DNA from: Candidatus Poribacteria bacterium
Lineage (GTDB): Bacteria > Poribacteria > WGA-4E > WGA-3G
Direction: 5' to 3'
NCBI GenBank assembly: GCA_003635255.1
Contig: PYJC01000170.1
Coordinates: forward strand, 2,500 to 66,499
DNA: 64,000 bases
Part shown: in pieces, positions 307 to 56,378 of the stretch
Layout of the letters: each line of letters begins with the position of its first letter
How positions within the stretch are numbered: the stretch's first letter is position 1
Notes under the pieces: model-generated
Told to the model about the DNA's origin: nothing
Seen by the model: the letters and a program-made list of their open reading frames with translations, nothing else
The model's database searches: none
Made by a program: the position numbers and the translations under genes

Positions 307-582
307 ATGACCGGAGATGCATTGGGTTTAGTTGAAACGCGAGGTTTAGTTGGAAGCATTGAAGCCGCTGACACAATGGTGAAAGCGGCGAATGTCCAAC
401 TTCTCGGTTACGAACAAGTTGGTGGGGGTTACGTGACTGTCATGGTTCGTGGTGATGTCGGCGCGGTGAAAGCCGCAACGGATGCCGGTGCTGAAGCAGC
501 CGCACGCGTCGGAGAAGTTGTTTCTGTTCACGTAATTCCGCGTCCACATGCTGAAGTCGAAACTCTCTTAAAGAAAGCGTAA
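307..582 (+). CDS. Bacterial microcompartment shell protein, BMC-H (PduA/EutM/CcmK family, Pfam PF00936)
   Basis: 91 aa; [51 protein letters not shown] is the canonical BMC-domain signature; AGGAGG RBS. Confidence 0.9.
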
Positions 583-655: not shown

Positions 656-1360
656 ATGCCAAACCGTGACCTTGTTGAGTTGATTACCCGCCGTGTTGTG
701 AACAGACTAACGACCAACCAAGCATGTAGCGGATGTGCTTTGAGAAGTTGTGATGCCGGAAACCGCGCATGTGACGTTGTCACACAACAACAACAGATCC
801 CCGTTGGGGTCTCAGCACGGCATGCCCATGTAACGCAGGAACACCTTGAGATTCTTTACGGTGCCGGGCACCAACTCACCGTCTACGCGCCTCTTTATCA
901 ACCGGAAGCATTCGCTGCGAACGAAACACTTACCATCGTCGGAAAACGGATGCGGGCTATTGAAGCCGTTCGCATTCTCGGACCTGTCCGGGATTACTCC
1001 CAAGTCGAAGTGGCACAAACCGAAGCAATTCGGCTCGGGTTAAGTCCTCCGATTCGAGACTCAGGTGATCTTGCTGGTGCGGAACCTATTACCCTCATCG
1101 GGCCCGCAGGAAGCGTCTATTTAGAGGAGGGTGCTATCTGCGCCACACGGCACATCCACATGACACCAAGTGATGCTAAGGCACTCAATATTCGCGAAGA
1201 AGACCTTCTAAAGGTATATTTCCCCGGTGAGCGTGCTTTGACTTTTGAAAATGTTCGTCCGAAAATTGATGAAAGTTACGTGCTTCAGATGCACTTAGAC
1301 ACCGATGATTCCAATGCCGCAGGTTTGAAGGGCGGCGAACCTGTTGAAATTGTGCGTTAG
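656..1360 (+). CDS. pduL: PduL-type phosphate propanoyl/acetyl-transferase (two PF06130 repeats)
   Basis: Two repeats each carrying an RHxH motif (GVSARHAHVTQEHL and ICATRHIHMTPSDA); about 230 aa; the N-terminal DLVELITRRVVNRL resembles an encapsulation-peptide helix. Confidence 0.8.
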   Translation: MPNRDLVELITRRVVNRLTTNQACSGCALRSCDAGNRACDVVTQQQQIPVGVSARHAHVTQEHLEILYGAGHQLTVYAPLYQPEAFAANETLTIVGKRMRAIEAVRILGPVRDYSQVEVAQTEAIRLGLSPPIRDSGDLAGAEPITLIGPAGSVYLEEGAICATRHIHMTPSDAKALNIREEDLLKVYFPGERALTFENVRPKIDESYVLQMHLDTDDSNAAGLKGGEPVEIVR

Positions 1361-1382: not shown

Positions 1383-2117
1383 ATGAACCAAGAATTGATC
1401 AATCAGATTCGGAAAATCGTGGAGCAGGTCCTGGAGGCACAAGTATCTACCGCGACGCAACTTGTAGACGAAAAACAACTACTTGCTATCTTTGGCGCGA
1501 CGCAACTTGAATTGGACGAACCGCTCCAGCAACTCAGCACCTGTATACAAGACGGATGGAAAATTACAATAATTCTGTCCGATCTCGCAACTAAAACTAT
1601 AAACTTTGAACCGATCTATGCCGCAGTGGGTGAAGAAAACGTCCTGCAGGAGAATGCACTAACCGATATAGCAACTTTTGTGGATACCTATCAACAAATT
1701 GTGCTTCCCGTTTTTTCGCATCCAATGGCTGCAAAACTCGCCTTAAGGCTTGTAGACACGCCGTGTACCTATCTCGTGTTTGAAGCTCTCTCTCAAGGAA
1801 AACAGGTCATAGCGGTCTCTGACGCACTGAATCAAGGCGAAACTACGAAAAAAATTAACAATATTGAAGTCGAATATGTAAACCTTTTGTCTGAACTTGG
1901 CGTTCAATGGGTACCTATGATGCAAATCGCCGAGTTAGTGACGAAGAAAATGAACGACTCGCCCGAGAGTTTAGACAAACCTCTGATTAGCGCAACGACT
2001 ATTTCAAATCTGGAGGCAAACGTACAGGAGTTGGTTCACGTAAAATCAGCGATTATTACACCACTTGCCCGTGAGCACGCCAAAAAGAGAGGTATTAAAC
2101 TGATACCTAAAAGTTAA
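1383..2117 (+). CDS. Hypothetical BMC-associated protein with an N-terminal encapsulation-peptide-like amphipathic helix
   Basis: 244 aa; N-terminus ELINQIRKIVEQVLEAQ matches the pattern of BMC targeting peptides; co-operonic with BMC-H and pduL; no recognisable catalytic motif. Confidence 0.5.
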   Translation: MNQELINQIRKIVEQVLEAQVSTATQLVDEKQLLAIFGATQLELDEPLQQLSTCIQDGWKITIILSDLATKTINFEPIYAAVGEENVLQENALTDIATFVDTYQQIVLPVFSHPMAAKLALRLVDTPCTYLVFEALSQGKQVIAVSDALNQGETTKKINNIEVEYVNLLSELGVQWVPMMQIAELVTKKMNDSPESLDKPLISATTISNLEANVQELVHVKSAIITPLAREHAKKRGIKLIPKS

Positions 2118-2201: not shown

Positions 2202-2355
2202 TCGGAACTATAGGTGAAAAAGATTGGAGTTATCGAAAGTATCAATTAACTTCGATTAATCCTTGACAATTTTTGCAGTCGGAACTATAGGTGAAAAAGA
2301 TTGGAGTTATCGAAAGTATCAATTAACTTCGATTAATCCTTGACAATTTTTGCAG
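2202..2355 (+). repeat. Perfect tandem duplication, 2 x 77 bp, each unit containing a TTGACA -35 box
   Basis: Unit tcggaactataggtgaaaaagattggagttatcgaaagtatcaattaacttcgattaatccttgacaatttttgcag at 2202-2278 and 2279-2355; the second copy is followed by a TATCAT -10 about 17 nt after TTGACA. Confidence 0.9.
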
Positions 2356-2481
2356 AAAATTGTATCATTTCCGTTAAATAAGAAAACTACCTTTAAGATT
2401 CACGAGGCACCGCGCACAACAGGTCTAAAAAACCCGTTGGCAACGCCAAATGAAGGAGATGTACTTAGAAGGAGATTTACC

Positions 2482-4161
2482 ATGAAAACCCGGATTTCGA
2501 TTTTAAGCGTAGTATGCCTCATCAGTTGTTTTGTAATCGCTGGGTTAGCAACCCCCGCGAATGCAGACCACGATTATTACGCAGACCGGCTGAGTCGCGA
2601 GCATCGCGTCGCAAGCGATGTTGATGAATGGATAGAGCGCGGGAACGCAACGATTACCGCCAGTCCCAGATTTGAGGATGGCGTTCGACTCACCGCCTGG
2701 GCAAGTGACACTCAGAACGCAGAAAACTACGAATTCGCAATTGCCAGCGCGGTATATCTTTTTGAAATTCCAGCAGGAACGCAGTATATTGAAGTTTTGG
2801 TGCGATACCGAGGCGAACCCCATCGACTCGAAATCGAAGATTACGATGAACCCATCGCCGGTCGCGCATGGATCCGCAATACTAAACGCGAGACAACACG
2901 TCGCGGCTATTACGACGAAAACGCTAAAGAGACACGTTACGGCGATACCTTTGTCCTCCGAGCAAAAAACCGCTCTGAACACATTAAGATCCCCGCCATC
3001 GGTCACGTCAAGGACGGATGGATGGAGCTGCATATTGTCGCTGAAGGTGGCGAACAGATTGACGTAGAATATCTTGAGGTCTCCACGTATCGTAGACAAC
3101 CGAAAGTTAGAGTGATTCAACGCTACACACCGACTTACCGGTGGCGCCCTTGGCACCGTTATACCTATCTTTACTTTTACGACGGTCCCATCTATTACGC
3201 GACGGACTACGACTACTATCTCCGATGGAGCTACCCCATCTACGATCACCACTATCTCTCAATCCGCTCGTATTACGGTGGGTACCTCGGACGCTACCGT
3301 GCCTACTATCCAAGTTCCTACTATCGCTGCTATTCACCATATTATTATAGCGGTTCAAGAAGTTACTACGGTGGTACGCCAAAAGTTTATCAGCGACGGA
3401 CGCAATTGAACCGGTGGAGTGCTAAGCATGAAACAACGCGCCGACAGTACAGTCGTAGCCGATTATCTGCTAACAATCAAAGCGGCAATCGAACAGCAGT
3501 ACGGAGAAGCGTCCGCACCACACTCGAAAATCATCGAAGACAGACACCTGCAACAACGGATCGGATTGCGCGCCAGTCTATTATCACGCAGAAACAGCGC
3601 GCCCGCGCTTCCACTTCAACGCTCCGCCAAAGCAAGGTAAGACAGAGCACTTACGCCTCCGAGAGCACAAGAAGTACAAGTACACTCAGTAAGCAGCGGC
3701 GTTACCCTGCGACTACAACACAAAGCGCGAACCGCTATAGCAGTTCAACACAGACACGACGGACGACGCCGCTTTATAGAAACTCAGCACAGACACAACG
3801 GACGACGCCGCTTTATAGACGTTCAACCTCTACTTCAAACCGATCGTTCTCGTCAAGCACAAGTAGTACCTCACGCCCGAAGTATAGAACCACTACTTCA
3901 AATTCGAGTTCGTCTCGCTCGCGATCAAGCATAAGCCGTTCATCCACAAGTTCATCGCGTGAGAGGTCAAGCGTGAGTCGTTCAAACTCGAGTTCAAGTT
4001 CGTCTCGTTCACGTACAAGTGTAAGCCGTTCTTCTTCCACAAAAACACGGACGCGTCCGACGACATCAAGCTCGAGTTCATCGCGTAGCAGCTCAAAGAG
4101 CAGCGACGATGACGATGACGATCGAAGCCGAACAACACAACGGACAAAACGGCGGCGTTAA
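2482..4161 (+). CDS. Secreted protein with a Tyr-rich segment and a long Ser/Arg/Thr-rich low-complexity C-terminus ending in D6
   Basis: GAAGGAG RBS 7 nt before the ATG at 2482; signal peptide MKTRISILSVVCLISCFVIAGLATPANA; YY-rich block; internal DNA repeats at 3760-3830 and 3900-4040; ends ...SSDDDDDDRSRTTQRTKRRR. Confidence 0.7.
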   Translation: MKTRISILSVVCLISCFVIAGLATPANADHDYYADRLSREHRVASDVDEWIERGNATITASPRFEDGVRLTAWASDTQNAENYEFAIASAVYLFEIPAGTQYIEVLVRYRGEPHRLEIEDYDEPIAGRAWIRNTKRETTRRGYYDENAKETRYGDTFVLRAKNRSEHIKIPAIGHVKDGWMELHIVAEGGEQIDVEYLEVSTYRRQPKVRVIQRYTPTYRWRPWHRYTYLYFYDGPIYYATDYDYYLRWSYPIYDHHYLSIRSYYGGYLGRYRAYYPSSYYRCYSPYYYSGSRSYYGGTPKVYQRRTQLNRWSAKHETTRRQYSRSRLSANNQSGNRTAVRRSVRTTLENHRRQTPATTDRIARQSIITQKQRARASTSTLRQSKVRQSTYASESTRSTSTLSKQRRYPATTTQSANRYSSSTQTRRTTPLYRNSAQTQRTTPLYRRSTSTSNRSFSSSTSSTSRPKYRTTTSNSSSSRSRSSISRSSTSSSRERSSVSRSNSSSSSSRSRTSVSRSSSTKTRTRPTTSSSSSSRSSSKSSDDDDDDRSRTTQRTKRRR

Positions 4162-4203: not shown

Positions 4204-4785
4204 GTGAAGCCCATATATCAAATGCGATTTTTGCTAATTATCTTATTACTGTTATTCAGCCTCCACGCCAGCTTTGCGCAGGAGGCTGAAAACAGCACAG
4301 AAGCCGAACAGCAAACGACAGAAACGGCGGAACAAGTTAAACTTGTTTCACCAATCGGTGCTATGGTGCGTTCTGCCGTTTTTCCGGGATGGGGACAGTT
4401 TTATAGTCGTAGTTACTTCCGAGGGAGCCTTACTGTCTTGGGAATAGGAGGTTCCGTTATCGGTGCTTTGTTGGCACAACAATCCTTTAGAAACCGGTAC
4501 GATGCTTATGAAGATCTGGTTTGGCAAGGTTTCCATAGTGAAGAAACAGTATTAGAAAGTTACGAGTATGCAAACCAGAGGTATAAACTCAGGACATTTT
4601 TTATGTATACTGGCATCGGTATTTGGCTTTATAGCCTTATCGATTCTTATGTGAGTGCCAACTTTCATAACGCAACTACCCTGATTCAGTCTATTGAACA
4701 GGATGTACAAGATTCCGAAAAATTTGGGATTGAAATGAGTGCAACCCCTTCACGTCTTTATTTTGGTATTGTTAAAACTTTTTGA
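4204..4785 (+). CDS. Exported or membrane protein with a PGWGQFY motif (DUF5683-like, name uncertain)
   Basis: GTG at 4204 or ATG at 4222; hydrophobic N-terminus and a later TM segment; motif VFPGWGQFYSRSY. Confidence 0.45.
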   Translation: MKPIYQMRFLLIILLLLFSLHASFAQEAENSTEAEQQTTETAEQVKLVSPIGAMVRSAVFPGWGQFYSRSYFRGSLTVLGIGGSVIGALLAQQSFRNRYDAYEDLVWQGFHSEETVLESYEYANQRYKLRTFFMYTGIGIWLYSLIDSYVSANFHNATTLIQSIEQDVQDSEKFGIEMSATPSRLYFGIVKTF

Positions 4786-5433: not shown

Positions 5434-6849
5434 ATGCCGCAACAGGAGGAACATCTACGTGATTATCTTCAACTCATCCGAAAGCATGACTTTACGATCT
5501 GCCTCAGTGTCCTACTGGTATTAGGAACCGCTCTCATTATCTCGCTCCGTCTACCTAAAACCTATGCCGCTTCAACCTTAATGTTATTCGTCCAACCCAG
5601 TGCTACATCTTCCCTGTCTTCCGCAAGCCTGTTTCAAAATGTCCTCTCTGGTGGTGTTGATCGACGAGAAATGGAAACAATCAGCACCCGATTTTCTACA
5701 GATTCAATGCTAAATATAGCAATCGAGAACCTTGAGGAGAATGGGCATGCAGAAGCAGTGACCCTTTTCCCACCAGTAGGTAAACTCAAACGAATGCTGA
5801 AGGCACAAGTCAACCCAGACTCCGATTATATTCATCTTTCGCTTGCCTTGGCTGAGGCAGAAGGTGGTGAACGGAATGCAGCACTCCTTGTCAACCAACT
5901 CGCAAGCGATATGCAAATGTTGCGACGTAGAGATAAAGAAACGAAACTCAAAAAACGCGTGGAGCTCATCGGAGATAAACAACAACAAGTCATATCGAAA
6001 TTGGAGAAAGAATCAGACGAACTGCTCAAATTCGTTCGCGAAAATGGAAGCCCAGAAACATGGGTGCCTATTCTGACTAATTTGCTCGAACGCCATGCCA
6101 ATGTCCAAGAAAAAATTGCGGTCAATCAACAGCAACTTTATGCAACGCGCGCCTATATTACACATCTACAAGACCAACTAAATCACTTACCTAAACAAGA
6201 ACAATTATCCGAAACCACTTCCCATAACCCCGTCTGGCTTTTTCAGCAGGAAAAACTCTTCAATCTTGAATCGCAGCGCGTCGCGGATAGAAAAAAAGTA
6301 GGTGCGAATCCATCAAAATTAGAAGGTCTCAACGCACAAATTGACGAAATAGAGAAAAAAAACAAGGATACCTCCCCTATAACTACCACCGCCACTGCCG
6401 GCATCTCCGCACATTATACCTATATACAGAATCAGTTAACAACATCTCTCCCCACCCTCTCAAGTTATGAAAATGCCGAAGAACACCTCAAACGGGAACT
6501 TGATAGCATAAAAACCCAACTGGCAAGGCTATTAATAGAGATCCCCGAAAACCATACGATCCTTACACAAATACAAACCAAGATTCAGAAAATGAATCTG
6601 GTCGCTGAAGAAATTGCTAAACGGTCACTTGAAGCAGAAATATTATATGCCGAATCTAAACTGCCAACCTCTCGTAATCAGATAGGTGGTATTGAAGTCA
6701 TCGACCGCGCCGCACCAAAGAAAATTCCTGTCACCCCGCAACTTAAACTTATTTTTCTTATCGCAGGAATCGCTGGTTTAACTTTAGGTGTTACAGCGGC
6801 TTTGTTCATCGAATATTTTAATAGGACTGTTGTGAACTTAAAAAACTGA
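5434..6849 (+). CDS. wzz: Polysaccharide co-polymerase / chain-length determinant (Wzz/GumC family, no kinase domain)
   Basis: N-terminal TM after the RKHDF region, a long coiled-coil periplasmic region and a C-terminal TM LIFLIAGIAGLTLGVTAALFIEYF; PCP topology. Confidence 0.65.
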   Translation: MPQQEEHLRDYLQLIRKHDFTICLSVLLVLGTALIISLRLPKTYAASTLMLFVQPSATSSLSSASLFQNVLSGGVDRREMETISTRFSTDSMLNIAIENLEENGHAEAVTLFPPVGKLKRMLKAQVNPDSDYIHLSLALAEAEGGERNAALLVNQLASDMQMLRRRDKETKLKKRVELIGDKQQQVISKLEKESDELLKFVRENGSPETWVPILTNLLERHANVQEKIAVNQQQLYATRAYITHLQDQLNHLPKQEQLSETTSHNPVWLFQQEKLFNLESQRVADRKKVGANPSKLEGLNAQIDEIEKKNKDTSPITTTATAGISAHYTYIQNQLTTSLPTLSSYENAEEHLKRELDSIKTQLARLLIEIPENHTILTQIQTKIQKMNLVAEEIAKRSLEAEILYAESKLPTSRNQIGGIEVIDRAAPKKIPVTPQLKLIFLIAGIAGLTLGVTAALFIEYFNRTVVNLKN

Positions 6850-6871
6850 ACATCCCATTCGGAAATATTTA

Positions 6872-6900
6872 AAGCCTCGATTTCGGTTCGAGGCTTTATT
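6872..6900 (+). terminator. Rho-independent terminator after wzz
   Basis: aaagcctcg-atttcggtt-cgaggcttt hairpin followed by an AT-rich run. Confidence 0.6.
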
Positions 6901-7328: not shown

Positions 7329-7357
7329 TTGACAGAAATTCAAATCGGTGCTATTTT
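7329..7357 (+). promoter_or_regulatory. Candidate promoter (TTGACA-17 nt-TATTTT) giving a roughly 340-nt leader for the 7705 gene
   Basis: ttgacagaaattcaaatcggtgctatttt lies in an 850-bp AT-rich noncoding region. Confidence 0.3.
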
Positions 7358-7704
7358 AGATGCTTAAGAACAGTTTTACAGGCATTTTATTTCACATTTA
7401 TTGTAAATTTCTGTAAAACAAACCCTTAATTTGTTGGAAGGAGACTCGCTTTTTATACGCTTCGCGCGATATTCGCAATTTACGGAATATCCGTCCGGTA
7501 GTGACGAAAAGTAAAAAAATTGAACAAGTGTTACTTTATAACTAACGCAATTTTGGCACCTTTCGTTTACACGCAAAGCGGTTTTCATCCATTTCAAGGT
7601 TTTTGTCGGAAACCCAGGTAAGAGCGCGAATGACGAAATATTCGTGTCGCCGCTCGGTTACCTAAACATCCGATTCATTATCTCCAAGGAGGAAAAACAA
7701 AATA

Positions 7705-10700
7705 ATGAACAGGCTAAAACAATCAATTGATGTTTTACTTGTAGCGACCTGTATCCTGAGCGCTTTTGTGCTTTACGGTTGTGGGGCACAAAGCCTTGGT
7801 CCACAAGAACCCCTATTGCCAACGATTGAGGGGAGTTCTAAATTCTCAGCGCGTTTCCAGTTAGAAGAAGAACCCCAATTCTTCTATGACCTGTTTGGAA
7901 AAGAGCTGCTTGAAGGTAACGAGGTCTACAACTATCGCGAGCAGAAAGAGTTTGACCAGAACGGTGAATTGTTTGTTGGTTGGACAGGACAGCTGGATAG
8001 TGAAAGATTCTCGGCACAGCTCGATAGAACGGTCTTAACTGAAGACAGTTACCGTGGAAGATACACCGAATTTGCTATTGGCGACCATTTGCGCTTCAAG
8101 CCATCTACGTTATTCCCGAACCGTTACATCCTCTACAAAACAGAATTTGACGGACTTCGATGGGATATCTCTTTCGCGCAGGAGCGGCACCTTTTCACGC
8201 TTATCAATTCCCGTATTTCAAACCCCGTCCAATTGACAGATGCAGCGGCGAACCTCGCACCAACGCTCGGTCGTCGGAACGGTCTGAATGAGGACGCAGG
8301 CGTACGGCATATTGAAAACGCACGCCTCGTGGGTTTCCGAGCACAAGGGCTTTTAGGCGACATCTTCCGTGTCGGGTTCACTTATGTCAATCTTCATAAA
8401 GAACACCCGGAACGTGTTGAAAACCCACTCATGGGTACCGTAGCAAATACACCACCAGAATCAATCACAGTTGTCTTCCGCGATGATTCGCCCGAAGATA
8501 ATCATGGAACTGTCACCGTATTCTCAGGTTACGACCCGACATTACATGGCGATAATATTCAGGGCGGTGTCGGTGCAGCTTTCAAAACTATGAAAGTTAC
8601 AATTGTCACCCAAGGCTTGGAAGAGTTAACACCTGAAGACATTGAGGAAGGGGTCGAACCTAAGGCACTCCCTTCGGAAACCATAACTGAAACCCTGGAC
8701 GGCAGTAATGTAATCGCGATGCCTGTCGGTGGACTTCCTTCTGATATCCGAGATTCTGAAGATGGAGACGGGTGGAAAATCGTGGACGGCTTCAATAAGA
8801 TGAAAGTTGTTCTCGTTTTTGTGGATCCAGATGGTGCACCTTCTCCCGATGTCGCACAACTCCTTTCAGAAGGGGCATACCAAATTGATGCTGATCCCCG
8901 CACGGTTCAATCCGTCACCTTTGAGATGGTTGTAGCGGGCGATTATAACATTGCTATTATTGGAAACAGCCCTGCAAACAAAGCCGAATCAGACCCGGAA
9001 ATCCAAGAGTGGATTAAAACCGAAGATGGCCACATCCAGATGCCCTACCGTGATATTATTGAAGCACCCGGCAACTATGGGCAATCCTCAGATTACACCA
9101 GCAACCGAGCATCACTCAAAGACAAACCGAGTGAATGGACCGGTGAAGGTAGACCGCGTAAAGTCCGTTATCAATACGGTGCAGCACGCGCAGCACTCCT
9201 CTACGGGCTTGACTTAGAAGGCACTATCGGCAACGTTTTTGTCCGAGCTCACTATTCCATTAACGGTAAATATAAGCAATATCCCACCATTCCCAAAGAG
9301 CAGATTGGATTTAGCCGGCTCAAAACGACCATCCTAAGCGAAGATGGCGAAGAAGAAACCGGTATTTCCATCGACCCCGCAACAGGATTACCCTTAGATG
9401 CAAACGGAGTCCCCACATACTCTGAAACCGAGGGTGAACGATTTGAAGCCATGTTAGGTGGCGACGGAACCGATGAAAGCGGCGACGGAACAATGGGTAG
9501 AGAAACCGCATGGTTCGTCCAACTCAAATCTCGATTCGGGAAACTGTATCTTGAAGGGGTCTATTATCATATCGATCCCGGATACACAACAACCTATCTC
9601 AACTTCGGTTCTAATACTGATAGGGATCAGGAATACTCCTTAGAGCGGACACCCGCATCACAGGCAGAACAAGATCCATGGGATGAAGTCAATTACGCCC
9701 TCATTGAAGATGATGATGATGATGACGACTGGCCCGATGATGACGACTTCGACGGAGTCTTACCACGCGCTGATGACAGAGACCAGAACGGCGTTTTGGA
9801 TTTCCAAGAAGACTTCCTCATCTTTGATGCTGATCCGCCGGTCTTCACCGACCTTGTTGATCTGAACAACAACGGTACAATTGATTCTCTTGAGGACGAT
9901 TTTGAACCGCAGTATGAGTACGGAATAGACAGGGAAGGCTACCACGTTTTCGCCGAATATGACCTCCTTGATAACCTTTCACTTAAAGTCGGATGGCTTA
10001 ATGAAAACGAGGTCTCAAGTCGCCGGAAAAATGATTCCAAATACCTACATGTCACCTATCAGCGTGACATTCCAGACTTTGGAACAGTCCTCTTCCAAAA
10101 CCGATTTGTCCGAGTTCAAGACGATATCCCGGACTATACCATTACATTGCGTGTCGGTGAATTGGAACCCGTCCAAATTTCCGACGAACTTGATTTCTAC
10201 AATGCTCGTGTGAATACCACAACACTTCAGTTCCTTTATACCGCTGTTCCCAACCTCACACTTGAAGCCAAATTCCTCGTTGTACTGCAAAAACAGTTTG
10301 AGCAGGATGAGGAAGGGGCAATCTTCCTTGATGTTGAGGGATCAGGAGACGAAGGCGATCCACTCAACGCCGATCAACGTGTTGACTTTATGGTCCCCGT
10401 TGAACAGGTTCGGGCTGGTGGTGAAAGACGGGAATTCCCGTTCTATCCAGACCACGGGATTAACGCACTGGATCCCGAGGATCCCGGCTTAATCTATGAC
10501 CCCGAAAACTGGAAAAAGCGGCGTTATCCGGAACGCGATATTCGCAACCAGCAGACAATTCTCAAGGCGAGATACGAGATCCCACTCGGTGAACTCCCGT
10601 TCGTTGACAGAATCGGTGAAGATTTAACACTCACACCGATGGCGAAGTACATCTGGGATCGCGCATTTGACCGAGCATCTGAGGAAATTGGCGAAGCACT

Positions 10701-11085
10701 CAACCCACGTCAGTTCGTGCCTACTGATATCGAACCCGTCGAATACTTACGCTTCAATCGTAGAAGTCGTGAAGATGTACTCGGCGTACGGCTTGACTAT
10801 CAGTTCTCGCAAAGGATGAATATTCTTGGCGGTTTCCAATACCGGAAATTCACCAACCGGGATAATAATTTCAAAAATTATTTGACAAACTTCCCGGAAG
10901 ATGAAGATGTACCAGTCCTCTATCGACCGGACTTGAGAACTCGAATCTTTGAAGTTCAAGCGATCAACCGCGGTGAATGGCTTGGGTTCAACATCGTCAT
11001 CCTTGCTGGTTACCGGCGAACCACTATCTTGCTTGATCACACGACGAGTAACACTACCTTCGTGCGAGCAATGATGGGTTTCTAA
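7705..11085 (+). CDS. Large outer-membrane lipoprotein, predicted beta-barrel, with acidic thrombospondin-type-3/EF-hand-like calcium-binding repeats
   Basis: AGGAGG RBS; lipobox LYGC; D-rich blocks DDDDDDDWPDDDDFDG, DDRDQNGVLDF and DLNNNGTIDSLEDD; C-terminal ...VRAMMGF ends in Phe, as in OM beta-barrel signatures. Confidence 0.6.
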   Translation: MNRLKQSIDVLLVATCILSAFVLYGCGAQSLGPQEPLLPTIEGSSKFSARFQLEEEPQFFYDLFGKELLEGNEVYNYREQKEFDQNGELFVGWTGQLDSERFSAQLDRTVLTEDSYRGRYTEFAIGDHLRFKPSTLFPNRYILYKTEFDGLRWDISFAQERHLFTLINSRISNPVQLTDAAANLAPTLGRRNGLNEDAGVRHIENARLVGFRAQGLLGDIFRVGFTYVNLHKEHPERVENPLMGTVANTPPESITVVFRDDSPEDNHGTVTVFSGYDPTLHGDNIQGGVGAAFKTMKVTIVTQGLEELTPEDIEEGVEPKALPSETITETLDGSNVIAMPVGGLPSDIRDSEDGDGWKIVDGFNKMKVVLVFVDPDGAPSPDVAQLLSEGAYQIDADPRTVQSVTFEMVVAGDYNIAIIGNSPANKAESDPEIQEWIKTEDGHIQMPYRDIIEAPGNYGQSSDYTSNRASLKDKPSEWTGEGRPRKVRYQYGAARAALLYGLDLEGTIGNVFVRAHYSINGKYKQYPTIPKEQIGFSRLKTTILSEDGEEETGISIDPATGLPLDANGVPTYSETEGERFEAMLGGDGTDESGDGTMGRETAWFVQLKSRFGKLYLEGVYYHIDPGYTTTYLNFGSNTDRDQEYSLERTPASQAEQDPWDEVNYALIEDDDDDDDWPDDDDFDGVLPRADDRDQNGVLDFQEDFLIFDADPPVFTDLVDLNNNGTIDSLEDDFEPQYEYGIDREGYHVFAEYDLLDNLSLKVGWLNENEVSSRRKNDSKYLHVTYQRDIPDFGTVLFQNRFVRVQDDIPDYTITLRVGELEPVQISDELDFYNARVNTTTLQFLYTAVPNLTLEAKFLVVLQKQFEQDEEGAIFLDVEGSGDEGDPLNADQRVDFMVPVEQVRAGGERREFPFYPDHGINALDPEDPGLIYDPENWKKRRYPERDIRNQQTILKARYEIPLGELPFVDRIGEDLTLTPMAKYIWDRAFDRASEEIGEALNPRQFVPTDIEPVEYLRFNRRSREDVLGVRLDYQFSQRMNILGGFQYRKFTNRDNNFKNYLTNFPEDEDVPVLYRPDLRTRIFEVQAINRGEWLGFNIVILAGYRRTTILLDHTTSNTTFVRAMMGF

Positions 11086-11096
11086 ATGTTTTGTGT

Positions 11097-11129
11097 ATCG
11101 CTGGACACAACCTCGTGTCCAGCGATACC
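11097..11129 (+). terminator. Perfect 13-bp stem-loop immediately after the stop of the 7705 gene
   Basis: tatcgctggacac-aacctc-gtgtccagcgata. Confidence 0.5.
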
Positions 11130-11428
11130 GCGTTCAGTAATATCACCTATAATACCATTTTTTCTAACGCTTGCATAAAGCGCGTAACTTCTTAAGGACT
11201 CAAGTGTTTTTAATAGAAATGGTGTTATAACCCGTAAGGGCGATCTACAGATATAGACTTTAACTCCCAACCAGAAGAACCGTGTAGATGAAACACTCAC
11301 GTGTTAGTAAAATAAAATTAAGGTGTTAAGGTACGGTTTTCGTGCTTTATTTATACAACACTTTATGAGATGACTTGTAGTAACTTGCCAACACAATCGG
11401 CAAGTTAACCTAAGGAGGATCAGAACGA

Positions 11429-12427
11429 ATGATTCGTTTTAGTTTCGTTTTAATGCTAATTGCTTGTGTCGGTATGTCTACTGGCATCGCTTTTGCGCAA
11501 GATGATGCAAGTGGTGGAACCGTCCGAGGCAATATTGTTGACACAACCACAGCACAGAACCCGATTCCAGAGGTTCAGGTCAAGATCGTTGCTACAGGCG
11601 GGGAAGAATATGAGGCAATGACAGATGCCAATGGCGAATATGAAAAAACTGGTGTCCCCGCGGGCCGCTACCTTATCAGTATTTATAGAGAAGGATATGG
11701 CGACCGGCTCGGAAAACCTGTCACAGTCGTTAATGGCGGTGATCACTTCGTACCGCTCAAGATGACCAAAAAGGATAACATTGTTACCTTCTTCCAGAAG
11801 TTTGGATTCGTCTTCTGGCCACTCGCCCTCTGCTCTATCACGGCGTTAACCTTCATTATTGAAAGACTTTTCACCTTTGTCCGGAGTCGTTCCCGAATCG
11901 GAACTGAACAGTTCATCGCCAGTATCGCAGACTCATTGCGAAAAGAGAACATTATGGAAGCCGTCTCGACTTGTGAAGAAGCCGGCGGTCCACTTGCCAA
12001 TGTCCTTAAAGCCGGGTTACTGCGATACAGCCAAGCCCAGATCGAGGAACGCGATATTAGCAAAGAAGAAATTCAGGAAGCCATTGAGGAAGCAAGCCTG
12101 CTTGAAATCCCCGAACTGGAAAGAAATTTGCCGGTTCTCGGTACAGTCGCTGTTGTTTCGCCGCTGTTCGGTTTGCTCGGAACGGTTACAGGTATGATTA
12201 GTGCGTTTACCACAATCGCACTCGAAGGTACCGGTGACCCGCAGCAGCTCGCAGGTGGTATCTCACAGGCACTCCTCACAACTGCTGCTGGCTTGACAGT
12301 TGCTATCCCATGTTTGATTTTCTTCCAACTTTTTGATAGCTGGGTCAACAGACACATGGTTGAAATTTCACAGGTTTCTACCGAAATTGTCAATCAACTG
12401 ATTGTTGGTGAATCTGGCAACGCCTAA
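11429..12427 (+). CDS. exbB: ExbB/TolQ/MotA-family proton channel with an N-terminal signal peptide and a carboxypeptidase-regulatory-like (CarbopepD_reg) domain
   Basis: AGGAGG RBS; MotA_ExbB core ...VLGTVAVVSPLFGLLGTVTGMISAF...AGGISQALLTTAAGLTVAIP; the N-terminal roughly 110 aa beta-sandwich-like segment VRGNIVDTT...GRYLISIYREGYG. Confidence 0.8.
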   Translation: MIRFSFVLMLIACVGMSTGIAFAQDDASGGTVRGNIVDTTTAQNPIPEVQVKIVATGGEEYEAMTDANGEYEKTGVPAGRYLISIYREGYGDRLGKPVTVVNGGDHFVPLKMTKKDNIVTFFQKFGFVFWPLALCSITALTFIIERLFTFVRSRSRIGTEQFIASIADSLRKENIMEAVSTCEEAGGPLANVLKAGLLRYSQAQIEERDISKEEIQEAIEEASLLEIPELERNLPVLGTVAVVSPLFGLLGTVTGMISAFTTIALEGTGDPQQLAGGISQALLTTAAGLTVAIPCLIFFQLFDSWVNRHMVEISQVSTEIVNQLIVGESGNA

Positions 12428-12537
12428 CCTTGGAACAGAACGGCGGGTGATTTACACCCGCCTCTCCAATAGGTTTGTAGGGTGTTAGGTTCTCGAACCG
12501 CAGCCCTGGTCTCATTAACGAGAAAGGAGACTTTGAA

Positions 12538-12987
12538 ATGCAACAAGTCGGTGAAGCCAAATTGAGCCTGCTTGCAACCAAAATCAGGGAACGTAAGCCA
12601 CCAACGCTCAGTATGGCACCTATGATTGATTGTGTATTCCTGCTCCTGATTTTCTTCATGGTGTCAACAACCTTCTCGCCGATTCCCGGACTCCGGGTGC
12701 AGCTTCCCCCACCAGGGAAACCCTCGCCCGACAAACCGAAAGGGTTGACAGTCCGAATCGCGAACCCAGAACCCGGTGAGGATAGAGGCACTATGGTGTT
12801 GAACGATGCCGTTGTCCAGGTTGATGAAATGTTCAACCAGTTTATCAATGCACCGGACGAGGCAACGAACATGCTCATTATCCAATCCGAGCGGGAAGTA
12901 CTCCATGAACAGATCGTGCAGGTGATGGATATCGCAAAACAGGCAGGTATAGATAAAATCGGATTCGCTATCGTCGCAAGAGACTGA
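12538..12987 (+). CDS. exbD: ExbD/TolR biopolymer transport protein (paralog 1)
   Basis: LSMAPMIDCVFLLLIFFMVSTTF TM anchor; ExbD fold; about 150 aa. Confidence 0.85.
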   Translation: MQQVGEAKLSLLATKIRERKPPTLSMAPMIDCVFLLLIFFMVSTTFSPIPGLRVQLPPPGKPSPDKPKGLTVRIANPEPGEDRGTMVLNDAVVQVDEMFNQFINAPDEATNMLIIQSEREVLHEQIVQVMDIAKQAGIDKIGFAIVARD

Positions 12988-13039
12988 CAGTCCCACGCGA
13001 CAGCAGTAGTAATCTAATTTCTATAGAAGGAGAATTCTC

Positions 13040-13462
13040 ATGGCTTTAAACTTGGCTAAACGGCGGAAAAGAGAGGACGAGGACGACATTCCGATGGCAC
13101 CTATGATTGATTGTGTGTTCTTGTTGCTCATCTTCTTCATGGTATCTGCTGTCATGAAGGTTCCTCCGCCTTTTACTGTCACCTTACCCGATTCTGCAAC
13201 GAAGCACGAATTTACGCGAAAGAAATTCAACCTTTTCATTAACAGTGACGGACGTATTTCAATTGATGACCAAGAAATGCTAACACTGGAAGACATGGAA
13301 CTTTTCATCGCAGCACATGAAAACCAGATTACTACCTTGATTATCAAAGCAGACAAACGTGCCAAGCACGGGGATGTCATTGACGTGGTAGAACGAGCGA
13401 AAATGCGTTCCAGTAAAACGGAAGGGCTTGAAATCGCTTTCGCGGTGTCAGAAGAAGACTGA
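13040..13462 (+). CDS. exbD: ExbD/TolR biopolymer transport protein (paralog 2, divergent)
   Basis: PMAPMIDCVFLLLIFFMVSAV anchor; 140 aa. Confidence 0.85.
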   Translation: MALNLAKRRKREDEDDIPMAPMIDCVFLLLIFFMVSAVMKVPPPFTVTLPDSATKHEFTRKKFNLFINSDGRISIDDQEMLTLEDMELFIAAHENQITTLIIKADKRAKHGDVIDVVERAKMRSSKTEGLEIAFAVSEED

Positions 13463-13483
13463 GGAACACAACGGAACTAAAAA

Positions 13484-13510
13484 AGGCAGCATTCGCTGCC
13501 TTTTTTTTTG
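13484..13510 (+). terminator. Rho-independent terminator (aggcagc-attc-gctgcct followed by T9)
   Basis: 7-bp GC stem followed by nine T residues. Confidence 0.75.
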
Positions 13511-13608
13511 TCTCACAGCCAACTGCGAGATTGCTATAAACGAACGTGCGTAACTCCATACACTTTCAGGTGTTTTAAAACCAACAATAAATATGGAGGC
13601 ACATTCGC

Positions 13609-14052
13609 ATGAAACATCTGAAGAGACACAAACCACCTAAACTTAGCATGGCACCTATGATTGATTGCGTATTTCTGCTCCTGATTTTCTTCATGGTGTC
13701 AACAACTTTTGCCCCTATCCAAGGGCTTCGAGTGCAACTTCCTCCACCCCTTTCTCAACCCACGCCCGATGACTCACGCATTGTCATCATGATTGCCAAC
13801 CCTGTACCGGGTGAAACCGAAGGAGTCATCGTTATGCGTGAGGACAGTAGAGAAGAAATTGTGCAAACGGGAGATATGTTTAATTGGCTCATCAAGGCGC
13901 CTGAAGATGCCAAAAGAATGGTAACGATCCGTGCAGGTCGCGAGGTTCTCCATGAACAAATCGTCCATGTCATGGATATCGCCAAACAAGCGGGTATTGA
14001 TAGAATTGGATTCGCCCGCGCTGCTAATGCTACCGTTAGGCTCGATCGTTGA
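13609..14052 (+). CDS. exbD: ExbD/TolR biopolymer transport protein (paralog 3, near-duplicate of paralog 1)
   Basis: Same anchor and C-terminal ...REVLHEQIVHVMDIAKQAGIDRIGFA as paralog 1; own GGAGG RBS. Confidence 0.85.
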   Translation: MKHLKRHKPPKLSMAPMIDCVFLLLIFFMVSTTFAPIQGLRVQLPPPLSQPTPDDSRIVIMIANPVPGETEGVIVMREDSREEIVQTGDMFNWLIKAPEDAKRMVTIRAGREVLHEQIVHVMDIAKQAGIDRIGFARAANATVRLDR

Positions 14053-21213: not shown

Positions 21214-22338
21214 ATGGCCAAACAGATTGCACTTTTCAACCACAAAGGCGGCGTGGGCAAGACAACAATGACCTTCAATCTCGGCTGGATGTTGGCAAAG
21301 AAAGGAAAGAAAGTCATCATCGTTGATTGTGATCCGCAGTGTAACCTCACCGGCATGGTGCTTGGCTTCAAGGATGCTAAACGTTTTGAATCAATGTACA
21401 AGTCAGTTGGTGTAACGAATATTCGCGAGGGTCTCGCGCCTGCTTTTGAATCGCGTCCCGCCCCCATCAAACCAGTGAACTGCGAATCCATCCGCGGACG
21501 TATGGAAATGCCTTCGCTACTGCACTTGTTACCAGGACATATTGGACTCGCCGAATACGAGGTGCCCCTGGGAGTCGCACAAGCACTGTCGGGTTCATTG
21601 GTAACGCTCCAGAATTTGCCCGGGTCCTTGCATAACCTTTTTTCTAAAACTGCTGACAAATACAACGCTGATTTTATTTTAGTAGATATGAGCCCAAGTT
21701 TGGGACCGATTAACCAAAACTTGCTTATGACGAGCGACTACTTCATTGTTCCGATGTTTCCGGACTACTTCTCAGCAATGGCGACGGAGAGTCTTGCCTC
21801 AATTTTACCGAAATGGTCGGGGTGGGCAAAGCAAGCCAAAAAGTCGCCGCTTCTACAAGAGGCTATTTATCCTTTTCCTGATAAGGATCCCAAATTTCTT
21901 GGAACTATAGTTCAGAATTATAGAGTTAGGGACGGAGAACCTGCTAAAGCCTTCGGAGAGTGGATTGAGCAAATAAAAATAGGCGTTGAGGAAAAACTCA
22001 TACCAGTCTTACGCGAAAACGATATGCTGCTTCCAGACGAATCTTATATAAAGACAAGGGCACTTGAATCGCATCAGCATCGATTTAATTTTATTAACCC
22101 AGATTTTGTAAATGACCAACTCATAAGTCAACCTCTTCTCCAAGTATCAGACTTCAATAGTCTGATTGCTCTCTCACAGAAACATAAAGTCCCAGTTTTT
22201 GATTTGACAGACGATCAGATTGGTCAAGCAGGTGTGATACTTGAAAGCACTAAGAGATCCATGGAACGCTTTCGGGACTTATTTTCTGATGGTGCGGAGC
22301 AGATAATTACACTTACCGAGAATGCTGAGTCTTATTGA
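21214..22338 (+). CDS. ParA/MinD-family P-loop ATPase with a roughly 120-aa C-terminal extension
   Basis: Deviant Walker A KGGVGKTT; the IVDCDPQ motif; 374 aa; it sits in a defense-gene context rather than a partition context. Confidence 0.8.
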   Translation: MAKQIALFNHKGGVGKTTMTFNLGWMLAKKGKKVIIVDCDPQCNLTGMVLGFKDAKRFESMYKSVGVTNIREGLAPAFESRPAPIKPVNCESIRGRMEMPSLLHLLPGHIGLAEYEVPLGVAQALSGSLVTLQNLPGSLHNLFSKTADKYNADFILVDMSPSLGPINQNLLMTSDYFIVPMFPDYFSAMATESLASILPKWSGWAKQAKKSPLLQEAIYPFPDKDPKFLGTIVQNYRVRDGEPAKAFGEWIEQIKIGVEEKLIPVLRENDMLLPDESYIKTRALESHQHRFNFINPDFVNDQLISQPLLQVSDFNSLIALSQKHKVPVFDLTDDQIGQAGVILESTKRSMERFRDLFSDGAEQIITLTENAESY

Positions 22339-22422
22339 ACAACTTCGTGAAAACATGGTAGGTGTCCGAATTTGGGCGGATTGCATTAGGCATTTGACCA
22401 ACAGACCACCCCCGCTGTAGAT

Positions 22423-22929
22423 TTGAGTGATCTTCTACGCGTGCAGATTGTCATGATTGTCAGTGCGCTTGACCATTATATCCACGAAATCACGAGAGTC
22501 GGGATGTTAGAAGTCTATGACAGAAAACGTCCACAGACGAATGCCTCCTTGCGTTTCCAAGTAACTATGGAGGCAACAATGACGGGAATTTCCAAACCGA
22601 GTGAAAACGACTGGTTTGACAGAGAAATTCGAGACAAGCATGGATACCAAGCCTTCCAACATCCGGATAACATAGCCAACGCAGTACGGCTTTTCTCATC
22701 CTGTGAATTGTGGAGAGCCGTTGCTTCGGAACTTAATCTAACCGATCAAGACGTAAAAAATCGACTTCGCGCTATAGTTAACCGTCGAAATCAAATTGTT
22801 CATGAAGCCGATTTAGATCCAAGTTATCCAGGGACCGGAAACCGTTGGCCCATTTCTCCTGCGGATGTGACAAGTGCCTCAGATTTCATTCAGGACGTTT
22901 GCGAAGCAATTCACACCGTCGTCAATTAA
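22423..22929 (+). CDS. HEPN-like protein (Rx4H motif), putative abortive-infection RNase
   Basis: C-terminal LRAIVNRRNQIVHEADLD contains R-x4-H; all-helical composition; start is TTG 22423 or ATG 22453. Confidence 0.5.
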   Translation: MSDLLRVQIVMIVSALDHYIHEITRVGMLEVYDRKRPQTNASLRFQVTMEATMTGISKPSENDWFDREIRDKHGYQAFQHPDNIANAVRLFSSCELWRAVASELNLTDQDVKNRLRAIVNRRNQIVHEADLDPSYPGTGNRWPISPADVTSASDFIQDVCEAIHTVVN

Positions 22930-22981
22930 GATAGACTGCTGTTTGATGCCATAGTATTTGCCGTGCATGGAGGTAATTAGG

Positions 22982-23293
22982 ATGGCAAGACAAAGAATCG
23001 TCAAATATCCGCCTAAGCGAGGGAAACTCTCAAAATCAAAAATTGAACGAGCCGTAAAGGAGGTCCTTGAGGCGAGAGGGGTCCCTATAGAGCCTAAACG
23101 TGATACCTACAAATACCATCTGAAGCGCGGTAATAAAGTTATCCGTAGCGGAATCACGAACAACTTAGACCGCCATGAAAAGGAACACCAGCGGAACTAC
23201 GGTAAAGATGTCCATGTTCAACAGGTTGGAAATCGGACAACGCGAGAAGGTGCGAGAGAATGGGAAAAGAAGCAACGGCGTAGCACGTCTTAG
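22982..23293 (+). CDS. Minimal GIY-YIG domain nuclease (about 103 aa)
   Basis: GGAGG RBS 8 nt upstream; YKYHLKRGNKVIRSGITNNLDRHEKEH matches the GIY...YIG..T.NL..R...H pattern. Confidence 0.55.
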   Translation: MARQRIVKYPPKRGKLSKSKIERAVKEVLEARGVPIEPKRDTYKYHLKRGNKVIRSGITNNLDRHEKEHQRNYGKDVHVQQVGNRTTREGAREWEKKQRRSTS

Positions 23294-23385
23294 TTTTTGA
23301 ATCCTTTTGTTGCCTTTTTAGAAAAAGAAAGTGGTATCGACCTATCCATAGATCAATACCCGATAAATGTATTCAACTTTCCCAT

Positions 23386-24537: not shown

Positions 24538-24572
24538 CAAATTTGTCTCCAATAAACGAATTCAACCGTCTC

Positions 24573-27728: not shown

Positions 27729-27743
27729 TCGGTAGTTTCCAAA

Positions 27744-28148
27744 TCAGGTGGAATGTGATTCAGAGACTGGCTCTGTGCTTGTCTCTAACGGCGCGTTTGA
27801 TGGCGTTAAGTGTTCACTTGCGAGTTCGCTGCTATTCCCCTCTGCTAATAGCGGTTCGATTGAGAGCTGCCATCCAAGTGCCTTGAGAACGGCATTCAGG
27901 GTACCAAGATGCAGTGGGTCTCCGCTGTATAGAAATTCTGAGAGGACTTTCGGGGTGATGCCGGCTTGCTTGGCAATTTTGGAAGTCCCGCCTTGGGCTT
28001 CTACAACATTCCGGATCCCCTTTAGAAAAAAGGGTGTGTCTCCATCAACAAGATATTCTTCCAATGAAACCTGGAGGTAACTCATCGCTTCCTCTCGGTT
28101 AGCGAGTTTTTCAATTAGGAATTCGTGCCATGTTGTTAGTTTTTCCAT
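27744..28148 (-). CDS. higA: HigA-type antitoxin (addiction-module antidote protein with HTH, TIGR02684-like)
   Basis: ...FLKGIRNVVEAQGGTSKIAKQAGITPKVLSEFL HTH; overlaps the higB stop by about 13 nt. Confidence 0.7.
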   Translation of the reverse strand: MEKLTTWHEFLIEKLANREEAMSYLQVSLEEYLVDGDTPFFLKGIRNVVEAQGGTSKIAKQAGITPKVLSEFLYSGDPLHLGTLNAVLKALGWQLSIEPLLAEGNSSELASEHLTPSNAPLETSTEPVSESHST

Positions 28149-28483: not shown

Positions 28484-28611
28484 TGATAATATCTTGTTCT
28501 TATCCAAGCGATATATTTCTAAAGTATATCACAAGTTCGGCAGAAAATCAAAGGGTGATGTGAGAAAAGTCGGGATTATAAACCCCTCCCACAAGTATTA
28601 GATAGATGGTT

Positions 28612-29181: not shown

Positions 29182-29215
29182 TTCGTTGCTATAGTCTCCT
29201 TGTCGGAAATTGATT

Positions 29216-51100: not shown

Positions 51101-51233
51101 ACCCTAATTATACCACATAAAAACAGATTTATCAAGTTTTATCTATATTTATCAAGTTTTAGAAGTGTTTAGGAACTGCTCCTCAATACTACAGTCGGCT
51201 TCGATCATAGGCGCGTTCTCTTAATTTTGCTGA

Positions 51234-54291: not shown

Positions 54292-54321
54292 AGAACACGC
54301 GAAGTTCTCACATCCGAAATA

Positions 54322-56375: not shown

Positions 56376-56378
56376 GTT

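Follow-up and report, generated by a model that had tools for sequence, protein, structure and literature searches.

What does an ExbB–ExbD motor drive when no TonB is encoded beside it and its neighbor is a giant outer-membrane protein? Motors of the ExbB/ExbD 5:2 class are known to power few envelope processes: Ton uptake, Tol-Pal, Agl-Glt gliding, the GldLM-driven type IX secretion system (T9SS), and flagella. The question is raised by a 64-kb stretch of Candidatus Poribacteria DNA, here called the window, in which a gene for a 1126-amino acid (aa) protein lies upstream of exbB and three exbD genes. An earlier note, made from the letters alone, had described these five open reading frames (ORFs) as a calcium-repeat outer-membrane lipoprotein followed by a domain-fused ExbB and three ExbD paralogs. 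All five ORFs are present (Table 1), and the Pfam domains of the motor proteins are found. The 1126-aa protein is predicted to be an integral β-barrel and is called the barrel below. Barrel and motor lie together in every Poribacteria locus compared, and their pairing recurs in three other phyla, so that they are probably parts of one undescribed energized envelope machine. We put the probability that the barrel family and its TonB-less ExbB–ExbD–ExbD motor are functionally coupled, as a variant of the Ton/Tol/Agl theme, at roughly one half. The locus and its motor genes, with their expression and localization, have been published as part of a bacterial microcompartment (BMC) study by Jahn et al. 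(PMC5087111), which does not describe the barrel family or its linkage to motors across phyla. Neither these two features nor the predicted fold and the EF-hand-type insert of the barrel are described in any of the papers or databases searched.

The giant barrel protein and its family

The barrel protein has no sequence match in Pfam, NCBIfam or the Protein Data Bank (PDB), and a PDB profile search with 73 family members returned nothing real, its only match being a spurious one to EcoR124 (E 0.02). The protein starts MNRLKQSIDVLLVATCILSAFVLYGC, a signal peptide with a lipobox-like LYGC in which MNRLKQSIDVLLVATCILSAFVLYG precedes the lipobox cysteine, Cys26. It ends in AMMGF, with a C-terminal Phe. 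The LYGC sequence has an atypical Tyr at position −2 compared with the pattern [LVI][ASTVI][GAS]C; all Poribacteria orthologs share it, while relatives in other phyla have ordinary signal peptides. AlphaFold2 models of the window barrel (pLDDT 70.9, pTM 0.74) and of P0157, a leaner relative from Gemmatimonadota (pLDDT 83.5, pTM 0.85), both show a single giant β-barrel of ∼26 long strands, as counted from DSSP strings. The C-terminal Phe seen by the earlier note is real; the protein appears to be an integral β-barrel that also carries a lipobox-like sequence, not a classical lipoprotein.

Several lines of evidence indicate that the barrel is not a TonB-dependent receptor. Its strands begin right after a disordered segment (residues 24–56 in the window protein and 16–65 in P0157); because these 30–50 residues after the signal peptide are disordered in the models, there is no plug domain. 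Searches of Pfam and NCBIfam at E ≤ 0.1 found neither Plug (PF07715) nor TonB_dep_Rec (PF00593) in the window barrel or in 10 distant relatives, and the window barrel has no recognizable TonB box. Foldseek searches of the PDB with the two models returned generic barrels, all with template modeling (TM) scores of at most 0.36. SlpA (30 strands) and MtrB (26 strands) ranked first, followed by porins, the barrels of TonB-dependent transporters (TM ≤ 0.32), LptD, ushers and SprA. The barrel therefore has no close solved relative, and the receptor assignment was rejected: domain matches and an N-terminal plug are lacking, and the barrel has ∼26 rather than 22 strands. Domain searches and structure prediction revealed neither a clear plug nor a 22-strand receptor barrel, and the earlier note was right that no receptor plug is present.

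The best Foldseek match of both models, with E values of 7.6e-12 and 3e-10, is SlpA of Deinococcus, a trimeric outer-membrane barrel of 30 strands from the S-layer deinoxanthin-binding complex. The two barrels are similar in size, and one member of the barrel family has a weak SlpA_C match (E 3e-4), the sole Pfam domain detected in the 10 distant relatives. The TM score is nevertheless ∼0.2, and the window barrel, in which Pfam finds neither S-layer homology (SLH) nor SlpA_C, has no SLH domain or coiled-coil stalk. SlpA, for its part, is not linked to ExbB/ExbD.

Two long insertions interrupt the window barrel, a β-rich domain (residues ∼290–455) and a conserved acidic segment. By strand count, each falls between an odd- and an even-numbered strand, which puts the two on one side of the model, presumably toward the cell exterior or the lumen. 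Asp and Glu make up 38% of residues 661–745. The acidic segment contains two exact matches to a strict 12-residue EF-loop pattern (D1, D/N3, D/N5, G6, I/L/V8, D9, E12) within a family-wide motif, LVDDNDDxDxxPD...GVFPGxDEDxDGxPDxNxNxNxxPDYxEPFLxY..DPxxFxYGxDxNNNGxIDxRENDxxPDYPY. The loops lack flanking EF-hand helices, and the model gives the segment no regular secondary structure at pLDDT values of 75–88. Of 148 family barrels, 76 carry the strict pattern, with 77 matches in 142,964 aa of barrel sequence and 0 in 237,690 aa of neighbor proteins. Given this enrichment, Ca2+ binding is reasonable to propose: the two loops probably bind Ca2+. The calcium-binding-like repeats of the earlier note correspond to this segment.

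Homologs of the barrel at 73–92% identity come from Candidatus Poribacteria metagenome-assembled genomes (MAGs) and are all annotated as hypothetical. An exhaustive HMMER search of 1.84 billion representatives extends the family to at least 286 clusters at 50% identity, every one of them named ‘hypothetical protein’ at its source. Most members are 850–1030 aa long and share 25–35% identity, with several matching stretches spread over their full length. When one genome per GTDB species was scanned with an alignment of the acidic motif, more than 544 relatives emerged. Of the best 77 distinct loci, the majority belong to Latescibacterota, some genomes of which hold at least five loci; the rest are from Gemmatimonadota, Handelsmanbacteria, Planctomycetota and others.

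The motor genes and their linkage to the barrel

The window ExbB begins with a cleavable signal peptide and joins an Ig-like CarboxypepD_reg domain (PF13620, 47.5 bits, residues 31–105) to a MotA_ExbB domain (PF01618, 111.5 bits, residues 188–313). Since the N-terminus of ExbB faces the periplasm, its topology would also place the fused Ig-like domain there. The fusion is present in all 120 homologs listed, and those with names are from Poribacteria. The three ExbDs keep the transmembrane Asp within MAPMIDCVFLLL, and a MotA_ExbB subunit together with such ExbDs assigns the set, by sequence, to the 5:2 motor class. The first two ExbDs are only 30% identical to each other. Of the two ExbDs in barrel-linked operons of other phyla, the first is the best match of ExbD1 and also matches ExbD3, and the second is the best match of ExbD2. 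ExbD3 is 62% identical to ExbD1 and is encoded after a terminator-like hairpin. Among five related Poribacteria loci reaching past the second exbD, four (L001, L082, L085 and L086) have no such gene, and the remaining one, L087, has a shortened third ExbD of 111 aa (L087 11879–12214). High identity and patchy presence mark ExbD3 as a recent lineage-specific duplicate. Three exbD genes do exist, as the earlier note had it, but the conserved unit has two ancient ExbD types, not a core of three.

The motor might instead correspond to TolQR and, in a Tol-Pal-like role in envelope integrity, use the barrel to tether or remodel the outer membrane. NCBIfam ranks TolQ (TIGR02796, 106.5 bits) over ExbB (TIGR02797, 73 bits) for the window ExbB, and TolR over ExbD for the window ExbDs; a tetratricopeptide repeat (TPR) protein linked to the barrel in other phyla has repeated YbgF/CpoB-like and BamD-like TPR units. 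These scores are nonetheless far under the equivalog cut-offs (221 bits for TolQ and 206.2 for ExbB; the ExbDs score 47–54 bits to TolR against a cut-off of 127.3, 127 in round figures). No tolA, tolB or pal gene was found in the window, and none occurs regularly in related loci, where a single PD40 (TolB-like) match was found among 52 otherwise unassigned neighbors. We consider a Tol-Pal-like role most improbable.

Within Poribacteria, the barrel gene is followed by ExbB–ExbD–ExbD in all seven loci available (the window, L001, L082, L083, L085, L086 and L087), although L083 ends inside exbB and shows the barrel–exbB adjacency only. A convergent gltB follows the motor genes in Poribacteria loci. 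In L086, the DUF5683, SnoaL-like and GNVR genes found upstream are replaced by unrelated genes on the opposite strand, and barrel and motor stay together. This persistence despite a changed upstream context indicates that the conserved unit is barrel plus motor, not the Wzz-like gene plus barrel.

To describe the neighborhood in other phyla, we predicted the ORFs of 81 loci and grouped them into clusters with an all-against-all BLAST. Family barrels number 163 in 80 loci, often as tandem pairs or triplets. Sixty loci have, upstream of the barrel, a protein that carries a Sec signal peptide and, strictly at its C-terminus, a FlgD_ig/CHU_C/Por_Secre_tail-like domain (cluster c1; here, C-terminal domain (CTD) proteins), and in 56 a TPR protein of ∼1050–1090 aa is encoded directly downstream. 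A ∼260-aa lipoprotein (40 loci), DUF4159 proteins (37), a PorV/PorP-like small barrel of ∼290–310 aa (14) and a SurA/PpiD-like peptidyl-prolyl isomerase (PPIase; 14) also recur. ExbB lies within 10 kb in 17 of the 81 loci and ExbD in 14, usually in two copies. A recurrent long operon reads CBM9-like lipoprotein, barrel, two lipoproteins, CTD protein, small barrel, and then barrel, TPR, ExbB, ExbD, ExbD, lipoprotein, PPIase and a polytopic membrane protein. Where ExbB is present in these loci, it mostly holds this same place, between the TPR gene and the two ExbDs. The closest non-Poribacteria relative of the window barrel (32% identity) is encoded in an Ignavibacteria MAG, at locus L084, within a tight co-directional cluster of another order: ExbB, ExbD, ExbD, a discoidin and CHU_C protein, small barrel, barrel, TPR, DUF4159, DUF4159. 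The linkage of barrel and motor is thus kept across Ignavibacteria, Latescibacterota and Gemmatimonadota while gene order differs, and an adjacency that is kept and recurs in this way is not explained by chance proximity. The window ExbB scores 100–128 bits to barrel-linked ExbBs of other phyla versus 51–57 bits to solved ExbB and TolQ proteins, a pattern consistent with a shared origin of the barrel-linked ExbBs.

Many loci of Latescibacterota and Gemmatimonadota (L005–L081, e.g., L011, L015, L022 and L029) have tandem triplets of distinct barrel paralogs of ∼900, 930 and 1050 aa. Ahead of the triplets are two CTD proteins that differ in their C-terminal endings (...TFLK versus ...VAVVY), and behind them come the TPR protein, DUF5683, a small lipoprotein and DUF4159. 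Such triplets may indicate hetero-oligomeric barrels.

Pfam scans that took in essentially all sizeable ORFs of the window found no match to TonB_C, TolA, Plug or TonB_dep_Rec. TonB_C and TolA were likewise absent from the 52 unassigned neighbors, which come from 19 related loci containing ExbB/D, and from the Ignavibacteria locus. In the Ton cluster of Fibrobacter, from the Fibrobacteres, Chlorobi and Bacteroidetes (FCB) group, TonB is encoded directly after ExbD–ExbD (FSU_2400–2403; PMC6851124). A ∼255-aa protein in this position in related loci (cluster c3) was considered as a TonB and rejected; it is a lipoprotein that matches nothing in Pfam or NCBIfam. The absence of TonB and TolA claimed in the earlier note therefore stands only for the window and the related loci examined; a TonB-annotated gene is transcribed elsewhere in the Poribacteria single-cell genome 3G (PMC5087111).

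This last observation bears on a more ordinary explanation, in which the motor works with a TonB encoded elsewhere and energizes canonical receptors, the barrel being an unrelated passive channel or structural porin that happens to be nearby. Jahn et al. proposed one such role, namely vitamin B12 import serving the adjacent BMC and PduL genes (PMC5087111). In keeping with this explanation, the motor has a highly expressed transcript of its own, a TonB-annotated transcript comes from elsewhere in genome 3G (PMC5087111), and ExbB–ExbD–ExbD is the usual layout of FCB-type Ton motors (PMC6851124). A canonical receptor also lies 3 kb from the barrel–motor operon in the Ignavibacteria locus, and two passive giant barrels, SlpA and MtrB, are among the structures that resemble the barrel most. 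It is, however, at odds with the adjacency in seven of seven Poribacteria loci and its recurrence in rearranged operons of at least three other phyla. Furthermore, the linked operons examined are without TonB, though TonB normally adjoins ExbD in this bacterial group, and neither a TonB-dependent receptor nor B12 genes were found in the window. We regard an ordinary Ton motor as a serious alternative, but an unlikely one.

The Ignavibacteria receptor (L084 1–2184, minus strand) has the canonical CarboxypepD_reg–Plug–TonB_dep_Rec architecture, so that classical TonB-dependent receptors coexist with the barrel family. The Ig-like domain that is fused to ExbB in Poribacteria sits on the receptor in this MAG.

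Barrel and motor as proposed parts of one envelope system

How might the two parts work together? We propose that the locus would encode two separately transcribed parts of one envelope system. The first would be a ∼26-strand, plugless outer-membrane barrel with an acidic EF-loop insert, from a family found in Poribacteria and FCB-group phyla. The second would be a dedicated proton-motive-force motor of the ExbB/TolQ–ExbD/TolR class, with one ExbB and two ancient ExbD paralogs as its components; the Poribacteria ExbB has gained a periplasmic Ig-like domain of its own. Proton flow through ExbB/ExbD would move the periplasmic domains of ExbD, and a link other than canonical TonB would transmit this movement to the barrel or to proteins docked there. 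Candidates for the link are the large TPR protein encoded next to the barrel, the DUF4159 proteins and the PorV/PorP-like small barrel in other phyla, and the ExbB-fused Ig-like domain in Poribacteria. With this energy the barrel may be gated, or cargo or surface proteins may travel through it or along it. Gene content and domains, the lack of a plug and of TonB in the loci examined, the predicted barrel fold and the linkage of barrel and motor across phyla are what the analysis shows; physical contact between barrel and motor, Ca2+ binding, the direction of transport and the nature of the cargo are conjectured. The earlier note had likewise suggested a proton-motive-force-coupled machine that is not a canonical TonB system. 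The lack of a receptor, the loci without TonB and the conserved pairing agree with this suggestion; the coupling that it presumes is likely rather than proven.

A number of observations weigh against coupling. In Poribacteria, barrel and motor are transcribed as separate units: the two genes are 343 nt apart, and just past the stop codon of the barrel gene lies a perfect 14-bp inverted repeat. Jahn et al. found ExbB–ExbD–ExbD to be one polycistron with zero read coverage on both sides (PMC5087111). One Poribacteria genome (L085) has an extra gene between barrel and exbB, encoding 439 aa without a Pfam match (L085 9642–10961), and the Poribacteria locus has none of the TPR, DUF4159, small-barrel and CTD-protein partners seen in other phyla. 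About 80% of Latescibacterota barrel loci have no motor nearby, and the window barrel does not stand out as nearest to the motor-adjacent subtype (median 67 versus 71 bits). The higher similarity among ExbBs of barrel-linked loci may stem from phylogeny alone. Finally, with a TonB-annotated gene elsewhere in Poribacteria, the motor could be a housekeeping Ton motor (PMC5087111).

The proposed machine can be compared with known systems. It shares with the Ton system the MotA_ExbB and ExbD Pfam families, the transmembrane Asp, the FCB layout of one ExbB and two ExbDs, and a large barrel alongside. Unlike Ton loci, the linked loci lack TonB, and the barrel has no Plug/TonB_dep_Rec or N-terminal globular domain and ∼26 instead of 22 strands. 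In SusC/Oar-type receptors, CarboxypepD_reg precedes the plug at the periplasmic N-terminus, whereas here it is fused to ExbB. The Agl-Glt gliding and Nfs spore-coat machines of Myxococcus resemble the locus in having one TolQ/ExbB-like and two different TolR/ExbD-like subunits and outer-membrane barrels, and resemble its relatives in other phyla in having very large linked TPR proteins. No Glt or Nfs homologs were detected, the lone trace being a 20.8-bit GltC match in the TPR protein. Moreover, Glt has the TonB-like GltG/J, and the barrel is far larger than GltA/B/H.

Another alternative is a T9SS-like or gliding-like surface machine, in which the barrel would be the outer-membrane core that secretes or moves CTD-bearing surface proteins. 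The PPIase would be its chaperone, the TPR protein a scaffold resembling SprE/PorW, and the small barrel a shuttle or an anchor; ExbB–ExbD–ExbD would replace GldLM or resemble AglRQS, and Poribacteria would keep a reduced version. The motor of Myxococcus is composed of AglR, AglQ and AglS, which one ExbB with two different ExbDs would mirror. The related loci do resemble the T9SS (SprA–PorV–PPI–SprE with GldLM) in combining a giant barrel, a small barrel, CTD proteins, a lipoprotein-like TPR scaffold, a PPIase and a 5:2-class motor, and SprA is among the Foldseek matches of the barrel. Every match to a T9SS family nonetheless falls under its curated cut-off: the small barrel reaches 45.9 bits to PorV/PorQ (PorV_fam cut-off 90), the TPR protein 117.8 bits to PorW/SprE (cut-off 250), in a class of repeat whose matches are promiscuous, and Por_Secre_tail 17.8 in related loci (cut-off 23). 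The barrel itself has no sequence match to SprA, is under half its size and superimposes on it with a Foldseek TM of ∼0.1–0.17. The motor is ExbB/ExbD, not GldLM, and searches of the window proteins for SprA/Sov, GldKLMN, PorV and PorU found no match. The CTD proteins may be cargo of a canonical T9SS, which has been reported in some FCB phyla (PMC11285876), and the partner genes are absent from the Poribacteria locus. A T9SS-like machine thus seems improbable.

We return to a barrel coupled to its motor. The wider claim would be that the barrel family forms the outer-membrane core of a distinct proton-motive-force-driven trans-envelope machine, separate from Ton, Tol-Pal, Agl-Glt and T9SS. Its parts would be the TonB-less ExbB–ExbD–ExbD motor and, outside Poribacteria, the TPR and DUF4159 proteins, the small barrel and the CTD surface proteins. 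It would be widespread in Latescibacterota, Gemmatimonadota and Ignavibacteria, with a minimal form in Poribacteria. We advance this claim tentatively, as possible.

Surroundings of the locus and its wider meaning

With a BMC shell gene and PduL at its start, the window corresponds to the published Poribacteria ‘BMC-A genomic region’, in which Jahn et al. (2016) described a BMC shell protein, PduL, hypothetical proteins, an exopolysaccharide-related protein, and ExbB and ExbD genes (PMC5087111). Coordinates of the features discussed are collected in Table 1.

Table 1. Features of the window, with positions counted from its first nucleotide
Feature	Position (nt)	Strand	Remarks
BMC shell protein	307-582		Window start
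PduL phosphate propanoyltransferase	656-1360		
244-aa protein	1383-2117		No family match
Secreted 603-aa protein	2350-4161	+	No Pfam or NCBIfam match
DUF5683 membrane protein	4204-4785	+	PF18935, 46.6 bits
Wzz/GNVR-like polysaccharide co-polymerase-like protein	5434-6849	+	Two transmembrane helices
Terminator-like hairpin ending the Wzz-like gene	6870-6898	+	11-bp stem, then T-rich tail
Sigma-70-type promoter-like site of the barrel gene	7329-7357	+	TTGACA, 17 nt, TATTTT, extended TG
5′ leader of the barrel gene, ∼345 nt, conserved	7358-7704	+	Conserved sequence blocks
Outer-membrane β-barrel (predicted), 1126 aa	7705-11085	+	Unannotated family
Conserved acidic segment of the barrel	9694-9930	+	Residues 664-742; two EF-hand-type 12-residue loops
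EF-hand-type loop 1	9775-9810		DRDQNGVLDFQE, residues 691-702; exact pattern match
EF-hand-type loop 2	9859-9894		DLNNNGTIDSLE, residues 719-730; exact pattern match
ExbB/TolQ-type proton-channel subunit, 332 aa	11429-12427	+	Cleavable signal peptide
CarboxypepD_reg domain of ExbB	11519-11743		
MotA_ExbB domain of ExbB	11990-12367		
ExbD type 1 (position-1 paralog)	12538-12987	+	PF02472, 81.7 bits
ExbD type 2 (position-2 paralog)	13040-13462	+	PF02472, ∼85.6 bits
Terminator-like hairpin after ExbD2	13479-13506	+	12-bp stem, then T run
ExbD3	13609-14052	+	PF02472, 70.6 bits
ParA-like ATPase	21214-22338		KGGVGKTT motif
HEPN RiboL-PSP protein	22423-22929		
Eco57I/MmeI-type fused restriction-modification enzyme	24573-27728		
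Antidote-like protein	27744-28175		
PLD-SNF2 helicase	29216-32266		
TnpB/Cas12f-like protein	49366-50955		
NACHT NTPase	52015-54291		
463-aa protein	54322-55713		No match
DUF4145 protein	55713-56375		
HSDR_N and N6_Mtase/Eco57I-type enzyme	56379-58499		

The gene immediately upstream of the barrel invites another explanation, which the earlier note had raised: a Wzz/GNVR-like co-polymerase and a giant barrel could form a trans-envelope exopolysaccharide conduit, possibly energized by the motor. The protein scores above the cut-off for GNVR (29.9 bits) and below that for Wzz (22 bits), with a TIGR03007 score (42.8 bits) far under the cut-off of 278.85. A gene of this kind stands upstream in six of the seven Poribacteria loci, and Jahn et al. 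labeled theirs an uncharacterized exopolysaccharide-synthesis protein (PMC5087111). The two genes are, however, 855 nt apart, with a terminator and a conserved promoter in the gap, so that the Wzz-like gene is a transcription unit of its own. L086 retains barrel and motor with this gene replaced, and none of the 80 loci from other phyla has a GNVR-like neighbor. The window also lacks matches to Wza-type outer-membrane polysaccharide export proteins (OPX; Poly_export), Wzx/Wzy, an ABC exporter or a glycosyltransferase. The link of the Wzz-like gene to the barrel is thus weak, and with it the link to polysaccharide export; the gene is probably context rather than part of the barrel–motor unit, and we hold a polysaccharide conduit to be very unlikely.

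The promoter-like site of the barrel gene is conserved, with TTGACA and the −10 region (TATTTT or TATTAT) kept in six of seven Poribacteria loci. The leader that follows it folds with a minimum free energy z-score of −3.27, and the consensus fold of the seven sequences is weak, with two short hairpins. No Rfam family matches the leader, and Rfam and tRNA scans of the window were empty. It may be a regulatory leader.

Further upstream, the DUF5683 gene precedes the barrel in most Poribacteria loci and is absent from L086. It corresponds to a neighbor cluster (c13) found directly after the TPR gene in eight related loci of Latescibacterota and Gemmatimonadota; the window copy and that of L011 match at a pairwise E of 0.001. 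The small lipoprotein that follows DUF5683 was tested as a further cross-phylum homolog and is not homologous. The secreted 603-aa protein has a globular N-terminal half and, as its C-terminal half, an extreme low-complexity tail rich in Tyr, Ser, Thr and Arg, with a stretch of poly-Asp and a basic tip at its end. Five of six other Poribacteria loci have, upstream of DUF5683, an ORF of comparable length (523–541 aa) that is also without a Pfam match. The 603-aa protein may perhaps be the ‘RhoGEF (COG5422)’ that Jahn et al. predicted to be in the outer membrane (PMC5087111). Far downstream of the motor, the window holds an apparent defense or mobile island (21214–32266) and a second defense-like cluster (49366–58499).

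What does the pairing mean for these bacteria? In sponge tissue, Poribacteria show high transcription of the genes for two ExbDs and for an ExbB that bears a carboxypeptidase-regulatory-like domain, and ExbD localizes to the cell membrane (PMC5087111). Jahn et al. assigned the motor to a TonB-dependent route of B12 import, and in their account the large gene stayed hypothetical (PMC5087111). The present analysis revises that reading of the locus. If barrel and motor do form a pair without a TonB in the locus, they would add a further client of 5:2 motors and a further route by which force reaches the outer membrane. The barrel family abounds in phyla that have been little studied but matter ecologically, which include polysaccharide degraders of sediment and soil and dominant sponge symbionts. 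As the motor genes are among the most highly expressed in sponge tissue (PMC5087111), the system is probably central to the envelope physiology of the symbiont.

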